The notes below the pieces were generated by a model. It searched no databases. It was given only the letters and a program-made list of their open reading frames with translations, and was not told where the DNA came from. Below are positions 32,510-48,328 of a stretch of DNA of 64,000 nucleotides, in pieces. The stretch lies in assembly GCA_963722655.1 (NCBI GenBank), contig CAVRNT010000002.1:138520-202519 (forward strand), written 5' to 3'. The DNA is from an uncultured bacterium (lineage in GTDB: Bacteria > Patescibacteriota > Minisyncoccia > UBA6257 > GWB1-50-10). A program made the position numbers and the translations under genes. Every line of letters begins with the position of its first letter. The stretch's first letter is position 1.

Positions 32510-33415
32510 TTAGACGTTCAAATAGCGCCGCGTGGCGATGACGCTCGAGACGATCCCCAAGACCACGCCGAAGAGGGCTTGGTAGAGGAAGAGGGCGAGG
32601 AAATTGGAGTTGAAATAGCCCTGGAGGTTGACCTCCGGCACGAAGTTCGAGATCGCGGGCGAGAGTGCGGCGATGATGGGGATGAAGATGAGGAAGGAGA
32701 CGACGGCGGCGATCACGCCGTAGAGGATGCCTTCGATGACGTACGGGCCGCGGATGAAATTATTGGAGGCGCCGACGAGGCGCATGATGCCGATCTGCTC
32801 GCGGTTCGAGAAGATGCCGAGGCGGATGGTGTTGAAGGTGACCGAGGCGGCCAGGAAGGCCAGGAAAAGGGTCAAGATGAAGCCGCCGCGGCTCATATTG
32901 TCCACGAAGGACGAGAGCCGATCGATGACGACCTGGTTCTGGGCGTAAGTGACCTTCTGAATGATGCCGGAGAAATCGGGCTTGTCGAGATAGGCCGCGA
33001 TCGTGTCGTAATGGTGGATGTCCTTCGCCTTGATGTTCAACGAGGCGAGGAGCGGGTTCGTGTCGAGCTCGGATAGCGTCTGGGTGATCGTCGTGTCGCT
33101 CGCGTGGGCCAGCTTGAAGTTGGCGAGAGCTTGGTCCTGCGAGACGTATTCCACGTACTTCACCTCGTCGAGACCTTCGAGCGATTTCTTGAGGTTCAAG
33201 ATGGTGTCCTCCGGCACGTTGCTCTGGAAGTAGACGGTGATGTCCACCTTGTCCTGGATCGCCTGCACCGCCCCTTGGCTCACGACGTTGAAGACGACGA
33301 GGCCTTCGAAGACGAGGAGGGCGAGGATCATGATGCCGATCGTGGAGATCGAAAGCCAGCCGTTCCGGAAAAAGCTTTGGAGACCGTATTTGATTATCCT
33401 GAAAAGAGTGACCAT
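32510..33415 (-). CDS. ftsX: Cell-division permease FtsX
   Basis: Four-TM ABC-permease-like protein with a large first periplasmic loop. Immediately downstream of ftsE, with a 3-nt gap. Confidence 0.8.
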   Translation of the reverse strand: MVTLFRIIKYGLQSFFRNGWLSISTIGIMILALLVFEGLVVFNVVSQGAVQAIQDKVDITVYFQSNVPEDTILNLKKSLEGLDEVKYVEYVSQDQALANFKLAHASDTTITQTLSELDTNPLLASLNIKAKDIHHYDTIAAYLDKPDFSGIIQKVTYAQNQVVIDRLSSFVDNMSRGGFILTLFLAFLAASVTFNTIRLGIFSNREQIGIMRLVGASNNFIRGPYVIEGILYGVIAAVVSFLIFIPIIAALSPAISNFVPEVNLQGYFNSNFLALFLYQALFGVVLGIVSSVIATRRYLNV

Positions 33416-33418
33416 TGG

Positions 33419-34102
33419 TTAGTCGATGAGAAATCTTCCGTGGGCCTCGTCGCGGACGACCTGGCCGCCTTCGAGCGTGATGACCCGCTCCCCGAGTGTG
33501 TTCACGATCTCCTTGTCGTGGGTGGCGAGGATGACAGTGCTCCCGAGCTCGTTGATCTTCTTCAATAATTTTATCACTTCCCAAGTGTTGAAGGGGTCCA
33601 AGTTCCCGGTCGGCTCGTCGGCGATCAGGACGTCCGGCTGGTTGATCATCGCCCGGGCGATCGCGACGCGTTGTTTCTCCCCGCCCGAAAGCTCGGAGGG
33701 GAAGTTCTGCATCTTATCCTTGAGCCCCACCATGTCGAGGACCTGGGGAACGAGCTCGTTGATCTCCTTTTGGAGGCGGCCCTCCACCTCGAGGGCGAAG
33801 GCGACGTTCTCAAAGGCGGTCTTCTTGGGCAGGAGCCGGAAGTCCTGGAAGATGACGCCGATGTGGCGCCGGAACTCCGGGAGTTCGGCGGGCTTCAACT
33901 TCTGCACCTCGTAGGAACCGAAGAAGATCTGGCCCTTGGTCGGCTTCTCCTCACCGATCAGGAGCTTCACCACCGTGGATTTGCCGGCGCCGGAGCGGCC
34001 GACGATCGTCACGAACTCGTTCGGCTGGATCTTGAAGTTCACCTTGTCCAGCGCTACGGAGTTGTGGTTGTAGATCTTGGAAACGTTTTGGAAAACTATC
34101 AT
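33419..34102 (-). CDS. ftsE: Cell-division ATP-binding protein FtsE
   Basis: Walker A GRSGAGKST, ABC signature LSGGEKQRVAIARA, Walker B VLIADEPTGNLD. Confidence 0.9.
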   Translation of the reverse strand: MIVFQNVSKIYNHNSVALDKVNFKIQPNEFVTIVGRSGAGKSTVVKLLIGEEKPTKGQIFFGSYEVQKLKPAELPEFRRHIGVIFQDFRLLPKKTAFENVAFALEVEGRLQKEINELVPQVLDMVGLKDKMQNFPSELSGGEKQRVAIARAMINQPDVLIADEPTGNLDPFNTWEVIKLLKKINELGSTVILATHDKEIVNTLGERVITLEGGQVVRDEAHGRFLID

Positions 34103-34155
34103 AAGAAAAGGCCTAAAATGGCGGCCTTCAGCTCTATAATCACATTATAACTCCC

Positions 34156-34842
34156 CTATTTCAATAAATCCAAGTTGCCCTCGAGCACCTCTTCGACCTT
34201 GGAGATCTTCTCTCCCGTCCGGTGGTCCTTCACCTGCTTATAGGGATGCAGGACGTACGAGCGGATCTCGTGGCCCCACTCCGGTTCCACCTTGGTCTTG
34301 AGGTTTTCGATAGCGCTTTCGTGCTTTTCCTGCATCACCGTGATGAGCTTGGCCTTGAGGAGCATCAGGGCCTTTTCGCGGTTCGCGGCCTGGGAGCGCT
34401 CGGCCCGCGAGGCGGCCACTAGCCCGGTCGGCAAATGGATGACGCGCACGGCCGTTTCCACCTTGTTCACGTTCTGGCCGCCGGGTCCGCCCGCCCGGGA
34501 AAACTCCACCTTGAGGTCTTTTTCAGGGATACTGATGTGCGCCGCCTCCATCGCCGGGATCTCCGGCAGGACGTCGACGAGCGCGAAAGAGGTGTGGCGC
34601 AGCTTCTTGGCGTCGAAAGGCGAGATGCGCACGAGCCGATGAACGCCGGCTTCTTCCTTCAAGCGTTCGTAGGCCCCTTGGCCGCGGATCTCGATGGCGT
34701 TATCGGCGACCTCCTGCCGCTTCCACGCCTTGCGGTCGGCGTACTTCTCGTACATCCGCATGAGCATCCGGGCCCAATCCTTGGCGTCGTCTCCCCCCGC
34801 GCCGGCGAAAACGGAAACATAAGTGATGTTCGGATTATGCAT
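34156..34842 (-). CDS. prfB: Peptide chain release factor 2 homolog lacking N-terminal domain 1
   Basis: 228 aa. Aligns from E. coli RF2 about residue 122 onward ([21 protein letters not shown]). RF2-specific SPF motif (RISPFDAKK) and GGQ ([13 protein letters not shown]) are present. The in-frame upstream sequence hits a stop inside the adjacent tRNA gene, so there is no room for domain 1 or the +1 frameshift cassette. Confidence 0.75.
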
Positions 34843-34846
34843 CTTG

Positions 34847-34918
34847 AGCCACCTCCGAGATTTGAACTCGGGACCTTCACTTTACGAAAGTGCTGCTCTA
34901 CCGCTGAGCTAAGGTGGC
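34847..34918 (-). tRNA. tRNA-Thr (anticodon CGU)
   Basis: Manual fold of the reverse complement. Acceptor GCCACCT/AGGTGGC, D-arm GCTC-AGCGGTA-GAGC, anticodon arm GCACT-TTCGTAA-AGTGA (CGU), T-arm CCGAG-TTCAAAT-CTCGG, discriminator U. Ends 4 nt upstream of the prfB-like start. Confidence 0.8.
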
Positions 34919-34949
34919 AACCTTAATAATGTAATAAAACATTGGTCAT

Positions 34950-34978
34950 TTGTAAAATTGCCGTTCTTGTGGTATAAG
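34950..34978 (+). promoter_or_regulatory. Promoter-like element for rnpB (TTGTAA-N17-TGgTATAAG)
   Basis: -35-like TTGTAA and extended -10 TGgTATAAG with a 17-nt spacer, 5-8 nt upstream of the predicted RNase P RNA 5' end. Confidence 0.4.
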
Positions 34979-34983
34979 GAATC

Positions 34984-35322
34984 CGGTAATTCAAATGACA
35001 GCTCCGGCGTAAGCCGGGGAGGAAAGTCGGGACACTCTCTGCCGATGAGGCAGATAAAAATGTAGCGGTTAACGGCCGCCGAGGGGAACCTTAGAGGTGC
35101 GAGCAGAAACGTCCTGAAGCGAAAGCCGAAGGAGGACCCGATCCCAAGCTAGTTGGTCCAGCTCCGCGATAGGGATAAAAACGTGGAGATGAAACGGCTA
35201 AATCCTTACAGAGTGCAAGGCCGCGCTCCGGAGAGATCCGGAGAGTGCCGCTCGAGCCCGAGAGCGATCGAGGGCCCAGATGAATTGTCATTTAAACAGA
35301 ATCCCGCTTATGAATTACCGAA
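34984..35322 (+). ncRNA. rnpB: RNase P RNA (bacterial type A, compact)
   Basis: P1 pairing CCGGTAATTC...GAATTACCG, P4 5' strand GGGGAGGAAAGTCGGGAC, P4 3' strand ACAGAATCCCGCTTA, conserved GGTTAACGG and AGTGCAAGGCC blocks. Followed by a strong terminator. Spurious ORFs 35091..35291 and 35153..35362 lie inside it. Confidence 0.75.
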
Positions 35323-35356
35323 AGACCGCGAAGCAATTCGCGGTCTTTTATTTTTC
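35323..35356. terminator. Intrinsic terminator after rnpB, shared with the convergent rnhB
   Basis: GACCGCGAA-GCAA-TTCGCGGTC perfect 9-bp stem followed by TTTTATTTTT. The rnhB stop lies 3 nt beyond it. Confidence 0.6.
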
Positions 35357-39321: not shown

Positions 39322-41073
39322 ATGGCAAAAGTTGAAAAGATAGACGGCATTCGGCACTCGCTGGCGCACCTCCTCGCCGCTGCGGTTTTGAAGAAGTTCC
39401 CAAAGGCGAAGCTAGGCGTTGGGCCGGTCATCGAGAACGGCTTTTATTACGACTTCAAACTCCCCCGCCCCCTCACGCCCGACGACCTCAAGGAGTTCGA
39501 GCAGACAATGCGCGACATCATTTCCCAAAAACTCCCCTTCAAAGGCGAGAAGATTACGCCCGCGCAGGCGAAAAAAATATTCAAAGACCAACCCTTCAAG
39601 CTAGAACTCATCAAGGATTTCACGAAAGCAAAGAGCCCGCTGACCGTCTACCATACCGGCAAGGTCTTTTTCGACCTCTGCCGCGGCGGCCACGTCAAAA
39701 ACACCTCGGAGATAAATCCCTCGGCCTTCAAGTTGGACAGGATCGCCGGCGCCTATTGGAGGGGCAACGAGAAGAACCCGCAGCTCCAGCGCATCTACGG
39801 TCTGGCCTTCGAGACCAAGAAGGAGCTGGACGACCATCTCGCGATGATGGAAGAGGCCAAGCGCCGCGATCACCGCGAGATCGGCAAGAAGCAAGAGCTA
39901 TTTGCCTTCGACGACCTTCTCGGCCCCGGCCTGCCGCTCTGGCTCCCCAAAGGCACCATCATCAAGGACGAGATAGAAAAGTTCGCCAAGGAGATGGAGG
40001 AAAAGTACGGCTACGTGAGGGTCTCGACGCCCCATATCGCGAAGCAGAAGCTTTTTGAGACCTCCGGCCACCTGCCGCACTATGCCGACTCGATGTTCCC
40101 GGCGATGAAGCTTGATGACGGCAACTACTACTTGAAGGCGATGAACTGCCCCATTCACCACCTCATTTACAGATCCTCCCCCCGGAGCTACCGCGAACTC
40201 CCCTTGCGCCTGGCCGAATACGGCACCGTCTACCGCAACGAGCTTTCCGGCACGCTCGCCGGGCTATTGCGCGTCCGGATGCTCTCGATGAACGACGCCC
40301 ATATTTACTGCCGGGCCGACCAAGTCGAGGAAGAGTTCAAGAAAGTGGTCGAGCTCACGCTCCACTACTTCAAGATCTTTGGGTTGAAGAACTATTCCTT
40401 CCGCCTCTCGCTCTGGGACCCGAATAACAAGGAAAAGTACATCAACGAGCCGAAGAATTGGAAAATGGCTGAAGACATCCTGCGAAAGATCCTCACTAAC
40501 TTGGGCGTGAGCTTCGTGGAGGCCAAAAACGAGGCGGCCTTTTACGGCCCGAAGGTGGATATCCAGTACCGCTCCGTCTCCGGCCGGGAAGAGACGATGT
40601 CCACGATTCAGCTCGACTTCGCGGCCAAGAAGCGCTTCGGCCTCGTCTATCACGACCGGGACGGCAAGGAAAACGGCGAGGTCTTTGTTATCCACCGCGC
40701 TCCGCTCTCGACCCACGAGCGGTTCATCGCCTATCTCATCGAGCACTACGCCGGCGAGTGGCCCGTGTGGCTTTCTCCCGTCCAGGCGCGCGTCATCCCA
40801 ATCGCCGATCGGCACACTGAATATGCCAAGCGAGCGGTGGAGGAACTGAAAAAGAACGGCTTGCGCGCCGACATCGCTTCTTCCGGCGAGACCCTTGGCA
40901 AGAACATCCGCGAGGCCGAGCTTCAGAAGATTCCTTATATCCTCGTCGTCGGCGATAAGGAGGTGGAAAGTAAGCTCATTAACGTCCGCGAAAGGCACAA
41001 AAAGGAGACGGTCACGATGAGTGCGATGAAGTTCATTGAGAAGGTCAAGCAGGAAGTAGAGGAGAAAAAATAA
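39322..41073 (+). CDS. thrS: Threonyl-tRNA synthetase (lacking the N-terminal TGS domain)
   Basis: Second-additional/editing domain HSLAHLLAAAV, class II motifs, C-terminal anticodon-binding domain. 583 aa. Confidence 0.9.
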   Translation: MAKVEKIDGIRHSLAHLLAAAVLKKFPKAKLGVGPVIENGFYYDFKLPRPLTPDDLKEFEQTMRDIISQKLPFKGEKITPAQAKKIFKDQPFKLELIKDFTKAKSPLTVYHTGKVFFDLCRGGHVKNTSEINPSAFKLDRIAGAYWRGNEKNPQLQRIYGLAFETKKELDDHLAMMEEAKRRDHREIGKKQELFAFDDLLGPGLPLWLPKGTIIKDEIEKFAKEMEEKYGYVRVSTPHIAKQKLFETSGHLPHYADSMFPAMKLDDGNYYLKAMNCPIHHLIYRSSPRSYRELPLRLAEYGTVYRNELSGTLAGLLRVRMLSMNDAHIYCRADQVEEEFKKVVELTLHYFKIFGLKNYSFRLSLWDPNNKEKYINEPKNWKMAEDILRKILTNLGVSFVEAKNEAAFYGPKVDIQYRSVSGREETMSTIQLDFAAKKRFGLVYHDRDGKENGEVFVIHRAPLSTHERFIAYLIEHYAGEWPVWLSPVQARVIPIADRHTEYAKRAVEELKKNGLRADIASSGETLGKNIREAELQKIPYILVVGDKEVESKLINVRERHKKETVTMSAMKFIEKVKQEVEEKK

Positions 41074-47334: not shown

Positions 47335-47760
47335 TTAATCGACGACCTTTATGCCCATATTGTGAGCCGTGCCTTCGATTATCTTCATCGCGGATTCAAC
47401 GTCGTTCGCGTTCAAATCCACCATCTTCTTCTCGGCGATGGCTTTGAGATCGGCCTTCGTAATCTGGCCGACCACTTTCTTACCGGACTCGCCCGAACCC
47501 TTCTCGACGCCGGCGGCCTTCTTGATAAGGGCCGAGGCGGGCGGGGTTTTGAGCTTGAACTCGAAGGAACGGTCCTCGTAGATCGTGATCTCGGCTGGGA
47601 TCACGTCCCCCTTCATCTCCTTCGTCGCCTCGTTGAACTGCTGGACGAAAGCGCCGATGTTCACGCCGTGCTGGCCCAGAGCCGGGCCGATGGGAGGAGC
47701 CGGGGTCGCCTCGCCAGCTTTGATCTGCAATTTAATAGTCGTTTTTATCGGTTTGGCCAT
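47335..47760 (-). CDS. rplK: 50S ribosomal protein L11
   Basis: [43 protein letters not shown]... Start at the internal ATG (47760). The ORF-track start at 47850 overlaps nusG. Confidence 0.9.
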
Positions 47761-47767
47761 GATGTTT

Positions 47768-48328
47768 TTATATCTTTCTGACTTGCAATGAATCCAGCTC
47801 GACGAGCGTGTCCCGGCCGAAGATGGGAACGAGCACTTTGACCTTGCCATGCTCTTCGTCCACCTCGGAGACTTTGCCTTCTTGGTCCTTGAACGGACCG
47901 TCCGTTATTTTTACCACCTCGCCTTCCTTCAAGTCAACCTTGAACTTCGGTTCCGCCCCGCCCAGCCGCGCCAAAAGGTCGTCCACCTCAGTCTTCGAAA
48001 GCGGCGTCGGCGTCGCGCTATCCGCCCCGACGAAACCGGTCACCCGCGGGGTGTTCCGGACGACGTACCACGAGTCGTTGTCGAGGATCATCTCCACGAG
48101 GACATAACCCGGGTAGATTTTCTCCTCGGTCTTCAACCGCTTGCCGTTCTTGATCTTGATCTTCGTCTCTTTGGGGACGACGACGCTGAAGATCTTGTCG
48201 GTCATCGAAAGTGATTCCACCCGCTGCTTCAAATAGCGGGCCACCGCGTCCTCGTAGCCCACGTAGGTGTGGATGGCGTACCAGGCGCGGTTCTCGTTCG
48301 TTTTTTTCGCTTCCGATTTTATGAGCAT
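47768..48328 (-). CDS. nusG: Transcription termination/antitermination factor NusG
   Basis: NGN domain ([18 protein letters not shown]) and KOW C-terminus ([22 protein letters not shown]). Start at MLIKSE (48328), 2 nt after the secE stop. Confidence 0.85.

Follow-up and report, generated by a model that had tools for sequence, protein, structure and literature searches.

Domain 1 is universal in textbook RF1 and RF2, the bacterial class I release factors (RFs); through it the canonical factors dock to the L11 stalk and recruit RF3, and it is thought to serve stalk docking and RF3-driven recycling. A programmed +1 frameshift site is common, but not universal, in prfB, the gene for RF2. Since the truncation experiments of 2003, the need for domain 1 in vivo has reportedly been debated. 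Relatives without this domain are already known, namely PrfH (RFH), ArfB/ICT1 (the GGQ domain only) and mutants from which domain 1 was deleted. Here we describe prfB', an RF2 gene consisting of domains 2-4 only, and its junction with a tRNA-Thr(CGU) gene. Both lie in a stretch of 64,000 nucleotides (nt) from an uncultured bacterium of the Patescibacteriota (Minisyncoccia; contig CAVRNT010000002.1, positions 138,520 to 202,519), which is called the window below.

The engineered E. coli RF1 and RF2 minus domain 1 resemble prfB' in their content of domains 2-4. According to the part of Baranov et al. 2006 (PMC1586002) that deals with this work (Mora et al. 2003), codon-specific release in vitro does not depend on domain 1 but the interaction with RF3 does; the truncated factors cannot engage RF3 and support E. 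coli growth poorly. As described there, they are laboratory constructs permitting slow growth only, whereas the truncation of prfB' is natural, fixed and clade-wide. PrfH, like prfB', is a class I RF homologue that has retained GGQ without domain 1; however, its decoding motifs are altered and it is always paired with rtcB, whereas prfB' possesses RF2-type motifs and has tRNA-Thr and ftsEX as neighbours. ArfB/ICT1 consists of a GGQ domain on its own, followed by a basic C-terminal tail, and has no domain for codon recognition; it differs in this from prfB', in which domains 2 and 4 are present. A 2019 survey of bacterial RF diversity comprises RF1, RF2, ArfB and PrfH only, with no domain-1-less RF2, and in the full-text literature searched, which does not cover all journals, no natural RF2 without domain 1 was found described for the candidate phyla radiation/Patescibacteria. 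What is plausibly new is therefore an RF2 minus domain 1 that is fixed in a Patescibacteria clade, together with its proposed, unusual mode of expression.

The short RF2 gene and its position

The prfB' gene encodes a protein of 228 residues, begins with ATG (34842-34840) and ends with TAG. It lies on the minus strand, the sole particular that a first-pass annotation made from the letters alone had left unstated; its observation was otherwise correct throughout. The nearest in-frame stop upstream (TAA, 34884-34882) is situated 13 codons before the ATG and within the tRNA gene, as that annotation had said, and no alternative start codon is present between the two. The Pfam PCRF profile matches with its positions 102-194 of 194 only, the first ~100 (domain 1) being unmatched, and the RF-1 domain is complete (PF00472, positions 4-116 of 116, E=2e-35). 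The prfB model TIGR00020 aligns with profile positions 117-345 of 353; its score of 287.4 bits is below the cutoff of 370, but higher than those of the models for prfA (TIGR00019, 185 bits vs cutoff 423), PrfH (TIGR03072, 75 bits vs 166.65) and ArfB (52 bits vs 100, in the GGQ stretch, residues 101-135, only), all of them below their cutoffs too. In a PDB search the protein aligned to RF2 chains from residue ~121-128 to ~350-355. As residues 128-354 of E. coli RF2 (1gqe) correspond to residues 7-225 of prfB', its first residue is equivalent to about residue 122 of the E. coli protein, and the RF2 match from there on that had been proposed at first is borne out by 1gqe, Pfam and TIGR00020 alike. 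The absence of domain 1 and of the frameshift site from this locus, claimed at the same time, agrees with the PCRF match from position 102 and the stop 13 codons upstream. Indeed, the +1 frameshift site lies inside the deleted domain 1 and is gone for this reason; the window locus has no sequence that could hold CTT TGA C.

In comparison with canonical RF2 (prfB, TIGR00020), domains 2-4 are homologous and contain SPF, GGQ, RHTSF and the switch-loop Trp, whereas domain 1 (~120 residues), and with it CTT TGA C, is missing, as is a beta-hairpin of 10-17 residues in domain 2 and, in one variant (type A, see below), the C-terminal tail. SPF (residues 74-76, nt 34623-34615) and GGQ (residues 121-123, nt 34482-34474), whose retention had been noticed before, can be read directly in the sequence, and the GGxD helix tip and the switch-loop residue Trp189 are kept besides RHTSF. 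The decoding tripeptide is SPF and not the PxT of RF1. In an alignment of 44 homologues S74, P75, H83-F86, G121-Q123 and W189 are invariant; locus L001 has SPY in place of SPF. An AlphaFold2 model based on the 44 homologues (predicted local distance difference test score, pLDDT, 74.6), in which the GGQ and switch loops are the only parts of low confidence, matches closed-form RF2 crystal structures with query-normalised template modelling scores of 0.81 (2ihr) and 0.83 (1gqe).

Downstream of prfB' follow ftsE and ftsX, the latter being the last gene of a conserved prfB-ftsE-ftsX block. The adjacency of prfB' and ftsE is found in 61 of the 64 related truncated loci with enough downstream sequence. 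The same gene order surrounds full-length prfB in Azambacteria (L003), in L013 and in Saccharibacteria-type loci (L004, L032, L041, L046, L070, L073). On the evidence of gene order, prfB' is the positional orthologue of prfB, in a slot conserved across Patescibacteria. Sequence comparison points the same way, with 52-63% identity to full-length RF2s of Paceibacteria. The full-length comparators come from a scan of GTDB genomes, which was dominated by generic RF2 patterns and in which L001 was the only truncated-type locus among the matches listed. The closest full-length relatives among these matches (L002, 63% identity; L004, 52%) possess the frameshift site, i.e., a short ORF0 (ORF, open reading frame) ending in GGG CGG CTT TGA C and followed by the +1 frame.

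The short protein might instead be an accessory paralogue, that is, a rescue or specialised RF comparable to PrfH or ArfB, with a full-length RF2 encoded elsewhere in the genome. Other domain-1-less class I homologues such as PrfH do exist, and the homologues of prfB' are named 'peptide chain release factor-like protein' or 'PCRF domain-containing protein' by NCBI, merely 'release factor-like' because such proteins fall under the prfB cutoff. However, the gene sits in the orthologous prfB-ftsE-ftsX slot, its closest relatives among the matches listed are bona fide prfB genes with a frameshift site, all RF2 decoding residues are present, the PrfH model stays far below its cutoff and none of the loci with called genes showed an RtcB neighbour. 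By score, motifs and neighbours, the predicted protein is neither PrfH nor ArfB. The search for a second RF2 covered the 64-kb window and the related loci. Neither a domain-1-like ORF nor a second RF gene was found within the window, and tblastn over 168 loci (1.9 Mb), with no lineage-specific RF1 query, revealed a second RF only in the unrelated Firmicute locus L053. For the GTDB genome carrying L001, the 80 best matches included no second RF2 locus, which is weak evidence; a duplicate prfB would also be improbable in genomes as small as these. We regard a paralogue as unlikely, and prfB' as the probable prfB of its lineage.

Conservation and origin of the truncated form

The best 120 homologues of prfB' in a collection of 5.8 billion proteins are all short (217-278 residues, 71-100% identity), and their named sources are Jorgensenbacteria, Brennerbacteria, Minisyncoccia, Paceibacterota and the 'Parcubacteria group'. 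Metagenomes were scanned with a DNA pattern encoding a 12-residue motif specific to the truncated form, which gave 79 stretches representing 73 distinct loci. In all 73 loci an in-frame stop is found at most ~70 codons upstream of the motif, which leaves no space for domain 1 in any of them. The median pairwise ratio of non-synonymous to synonymous substitution rates (dN/dS) is 0.08 (23 pairs with unsaturated dS), and the mean column identity across the 44 homologues is 78%. Judged from these values, the prfB' family is under purifying selection and conserved across many Patescibacteria.

That prfB' is the remnant of a pseudogene, or that its tRNA junction arose by misassembly, had been named in the first-pass annotation as a possible way out, but nothing speaks for either except the odd junction itself. 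Both are rejected: the open frame is intact, dN/dS and column identity are those of a conserved gene, and the same tRNA-ATG junction recurs in independent assemblies from NCBI, ENA, JGI and Logan. The comparative data refute this explanation, and its probability appears negligible.

Two variants of the truncated protein can be distinguished. 'Type B' proteins start with MxPLTGKYDxNNAH... and have kept the linker between domains 1 and 2 as well as a C-terminal FIEAELEL tail, whereas 'type A' proteins, to which that of the window belongs, start with MxxNPNI... and have lost both. Furthermore, a full-length RF2 of 347 residues with domain 1 present (P0121, locus L171, 1212-1289; 59% identity) has in-frame CTT AAT where the frameshift site would be, and its ATG is located 4 nt past a tRNA-Thr(CGU) gene. 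As this full-length gene abuts the tRNA as well, the abutment must be older than the loss of domain 1. P0121 resembles an evolutionary intermediate. The truncation may thus have proceeded from a canonical frameshifted prfB (L002, L004) via a full-length prfB abutting tRNA-Thr(CGU) without the frameshift site (P0121) to a form that lacks domain 1 but still has the linker and C-terminal tail (type B), from which the linker and tail would finally have been trimmed as well (type A, the window); each of these states is represented among extant sequences. In neighbour-joining bootstraps bearing on one or several origins of the truncation, types A and B grouped in 22%, type B and the full-length form in 16%, and all three together in 82%. 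The deletion of the 10-17-residue hairpin in domain 2 was considered as a co-adaptation to the loss of domain 1 and rejected: it is shared by type A, type B and the full-length P0121.

A split gene, with domain 1 made from another locus and acting in trans, had initially been offered as an alternative to a natural truncation. The range of the search, i.e., the 64-kb window and ~20-kb flanks of related loci, leaves some room for it. However, a hidden Markov model of domain 1 made from the closest full-length relatives and applied in six frames, which recovered the positive controls L002 and L004, detected no domain-1 ORF within the window or ~20 kb around seven related loci. In type A proteins the domain-1/2 linker and C-terminal tail are gone as well, which suggests adaptation to life without domain 1, and domain 1 is dispensable for release (in the part of PMC1586002 dealing with the engineered factors). 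The split gene has found no support and we consider it very unlikely; a factor that works as domains 2-4 accounts better for these data.

Domain-1-less RF2-like proteins may occur elsewhere, too. When 1.84 billion representatives were scanned exhaustively with HMMER, a few further short RF2-like proteins with SPF and GGQ came to light, among them P0263 (233 residues; L170 6001-6702) and P0240 (241 residues; L169 227-952), which lack domain 1 and are ~45-50% identical. The contig of P0263 (294 kb) contains genes mostly without Pfam matches, including an IS605 OrfB/TnpB gene, and may represent a huge phage or an unusual genome; that of P0240 is 1.3 kb long.

The tRNA-Thr junction and expression of prfB'

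A translation-factor gene directly downstream of a same-strand tRNA-Thr gene is known from the thrU-tyrU-glyT-thrT-tufB operon of E. coli, which is expressed as a tRNA-mRNA co-transcript; however, the spacer there exceeds 100 nt and tufB has its own Shine-Dalgarno (SD) sequence, whereas the spacer of prfB' is 0-6 nt in many genomes. In the 'tRNA punctuation' model of mitochondria, tRNA processing sets the 5' end of the mRNA and a leaderless message results. The resemblance of prfB' to this model is hypothetical, in that tRNA processing would yield a leaderless message here as well.

On the minus strand the junction in the window reads ...CTCGGAGGTGGC-T-C-AAG-ATG. The 4 nt initially reported between the ATG and the same-strand tRNA-Thr(CGU) correspond to a gap of 3 nt with the tRNA end of ARAGORN and of 4 nt with that of Rfam, and cleavage past the discriminator U73 would give a 4-nt leader, CAAG. 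In 59 of the 73 distinct metagenomic loci a tRNA was detected upstream of the gene; the nearest one is a same-strand tRNA-Thr(CGU) in 58 of them and lies on the opposite strand in the remaining locus; 5 of the 14 loci without a tRNA found have <300 nt of upstream sequence. The distance from the tRNA end to the 12-residue motif is at most 110 nt in 26 loci (the abutting group, with a tRNA-ATG gap of at most ~70 nt), 111-250 nt in 10 loci on the same strand and one on the opposite strand, 251-1100 nt in 19 loci and >1100 nt in 3. Within the abutting group, 16 loci have the ATG at most 10 nt away from the tRNA end, and in 11 metagenomic loci it follows the tRNA by 0-3 nt or overlaps it (e.g., ...GGCTC|ATG, or ...GGCTCCA|TG, where A76 is the A of ATG). 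The tight junction is shared by the window, L001 and L082/L083. The comparison of prfB loci in relatives, suggested in the first-pass annotation, thus revealed a conserved short form, a shared prfB-ftsE-ftsX slot and a tRNA-Thr(CGU) that is nearly always upstream.

In about 19 of the 73 loci, unrelated variable ORFs of 150-330 residues are located between tRNA-Thr(CGU) and prfB' (among them L090, L096, L107, L111, L121, L138, L160 and L165), and several of these ORFs themselves begin 1-3 nt past the tRNA. The wider spacing looks like the result of secondary insertion downstream of the tRNA, which suggests that the tRNA 3' flank is an insertion hotspot. Locus L104 has a 30-nt remnant of a tRNA 3' end next to the prfB' ATG. 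Such remnants were discarded as a general integration footprint: only L104, one of 30 loci, exceeds shuffled controls.

The gap separating the tRNA from the ATG is too short to hold a terminator or a promoter. A consensus scan of the region gave 5 promoter sites (0.8 expected); a promoter-like site precedes the tRNA, and none was found inside it. Most prfB' genes of the family lack an SD sequence. The SD-like GGAGGTG of the window, formed by the T-stem and the 3' strand of the acceptor stem, is not conserved (it is absent from L001, L082 and L125) and is therefore probably incidental; an SD inside the tRNA was rejected as a conserved initiation signal, since many abutting relatives are without it. 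In the window as a whole, only 17 of 48 ORFs carry any SD-like motif, and 11 of 47 ORFs have a hexamer that matches TATAAT in at least 5 of 6 positions and ends 6-8 nt ahead of the start codon. The rate of such hexamers at this spacing is 1.5 per position vs 0.15-0.25 elsewhere, i.e., ~7-fold higher. This spacing of -10-like hexamers and the scarcity of SD motifs appear to be the signature of abundant leaderless mRNAs, and about a quarter of the window genes look leaderless.

We propose that tRNA-Thr and prfB', possibly with ftsEX, are transcribed together from a single promoter in front of the tRNA. The 5' end of the tRNA would be matured by RNase P and its 3' end by a 3' endonuclease, of the RNase Z type for a CCA-less tRNA; the latter step would leave a prfB' mRNA with a leader of 0-6 nt (4 nt in the window), to be translated as a leaderless or near-leaderless message. 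In bacteria such as B. subtilis, the cut made by RNase Z falls behind the discriminator. The scheme is credible because most prfB' genes have no SD, GGAGGTG is not conserved and the leaderless signature of the window is strong. As far as can be judged from the sequence, prfB' is probably transcribed with the tRNA and translated from a near-leaderless mRNA. Of the initial proposal of a naturally domain-1-less RF, possibly co-transcribed with a tRNA, the natural truncation stands, with a conserved family in the prfB slot; the co-transcription is inferred.

As regards expression, prfB' could also be transcribed from a promoter of its own that overlaps the 3' half of the tRNA, or the precursor could be translated by means of GGAGGTG. 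In the window this motif has the ideal 9-nt spacing from the ATG, about 10 of the 26 abutting loci share GGAGGTGG, and the T-loop sequence TTCAAAT resembles a -10 box. However, GGAGGTGG is shared because it is part of the tRNA-Thr acceptor stem, a folded tRNA would hide an SD lying in its acceptor and T stems, many abutting loci are devoid of any SD-like sequence (e.g., ...CACCTCCGGCTC|ATG), and the tRNA contains no site detectable by the consensus scan. We therefore hold such expression to be rather unlikely and prefer the tRNA-linked transcript. The region 34103-34164 (minus strand), between prfB' and ftsE, harbours a short GC hairpin (AAGGCC...GGCCTT) followed by TTTCTT, as well as a promoter-like TTGAAA-17-GATTAT with a TG extension, and ftsE has no SD; for these reasons ftsEX may be partly uncoupled from prfB' transcription.

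Predicted function, significance and genomic surroundings

Most likely, judging from the conserved decoding and catalytic motifs, prfB' still acts as a codon-specific terminator at UGA and UAA. UGA is in use as a stop, which speaks for a need for RF2: in a crude set of 58 ORFs of the window, the stop codons are TAA in 34, TGA in 17 (~29%) and TAG in 7. Because domain 1 and the frameshift site within it are lost, the factor would terminate without RF3-assisted recycling, dissociating from the ribosome without the help of RF3, and would escape the classical RF2 autoregulation. Taken as a whole, the data are best explained by the lineage's own prfB having been cut down to domains 2-4, with its product likely serving as UGA/UAA terminator and with a tRNA-linked, leaderless mode of expression, and we consider this explanation fairly probable. 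More tentative, and in our estimate short of an even chance, is the broader statement that in this Paceibacteria/Minisyncoccia clade a domain-1-less RF2 is the only RF2, operates without RF3 recycling and autoregulation, and is made from a leaderless mRNA generated by 3' processing of tRNA-Thr(CGU).

Several observations weigh against this explanation. L11, encoded in the window (47335-47850), is complete and keeps both domains, i.e., the docking site of domain 1 has not degenerated. The structural model of prfB' is of moderate confidence, and NCBI names its homologues only as 'release factor-like'. As for expression, the promoter upstream of the tRNA is called from a consensus match, and in ~60% of the related loci a distance of 100 nt to 4 kb, with variable genes in it, separates the tRNA from prfB'; tight coupling to the tRNA is therefore not obligatory.

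The hosts of the short form are a large group of ultra-small groundwater Patescibacteria. Their prfB' clade represents a natural evolutionary experiment on the contribution of domain 1 and RF3, and a case in which one of the best-known programmed frameshifts was lost. The protein itself is a minimal RF2 for structural work and for use in synthetic biology. With marker sets and annotation pipelines that rely on TIGR00020, prfB will be recorded as absent or as only 'RF-like' in this group, and estimates of genome completeness are biased as a result. Furthermore, the abutment of tRNA and ATG, together with the leaderless-promoter signature, suggests an unusual bacterial route to an mRNA 5' end; if true, the tRNA-processed leaderless prfB' mRNA would be a bacterial equivalent of tRNA punctuation in mitochondria.

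The features of the locus are listed in Table 1.

Table 1. Positions of prfB' and associated features in the window (numbering from the first nucleotide of the window)
Feature	Position	Strand	Source or remark
prfB', RF2 of 228 residues, domains 2-4 only	34156..34842	minus	ORF, Pfam, NCBIfam, PDB alignments, AlphaFold model
Junction AAG, tRNA 3' end to ATG (3 nt)	34843..34845	minus	read from sequence
tRNA-Thr (anticodon CGU), CCA not encoded	34846..34918	minus	ARAGORN; Rfam RF00005 at 34847..34918, 65.7 bits
SD-like GGAGGTG in tRNA T-stem and acceptor 3' strand	34850..34856	minus	9 nt before ATG
Promoter-like site TTTACA-17-TACATT	34928..34956	minus	consensus scan only; ends 9 nt before tRNA 5' end
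RNase P RNA (class A)	34983..35325	plus	divergent from tRNA; Rfam RF00010, 96.8 bits, E=3e-30
ftsE (ABC ATPase)	33419..34102	minus	ORF; 53 nt downstream of prfB'
ftsX	32510..33415	minus	ORF; last gene of the block
Starts with -10-like hexamer	3795, 7201, 11907, 14168, 16374, 18390, 28923, 60039	minus	
Starts with -10-like hexamer	103, 39322, 41280		

An RNase P RNA gene is a conserved neighbour of the tRNA-Thr(CGU)-prfB' pair. That of the window is missed by a default Rfam scan because its score is under the gathering score of 100. The RNase P RNA gene immediately precedes the tRNA, in the same orientation, in L001 (9456-9828) and L082 (9511-9860), and is divergent, on the opposite strand, in L084 (8813-9206), as in the window. 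The threonyl-tRNA synthetase gene thrS (39322-41073, plus strand) is found ~4.4 kb from tRNA-Thr(CGU), and the dnaE-rnhB-...-thrS neighbourhood recurs in L081, L084 and L085. The Jorgensenbacteria-type contig L088 carries a group I intron in its 23S rRNA gene (507-725; Rfam RF00028, 51.1 bits).

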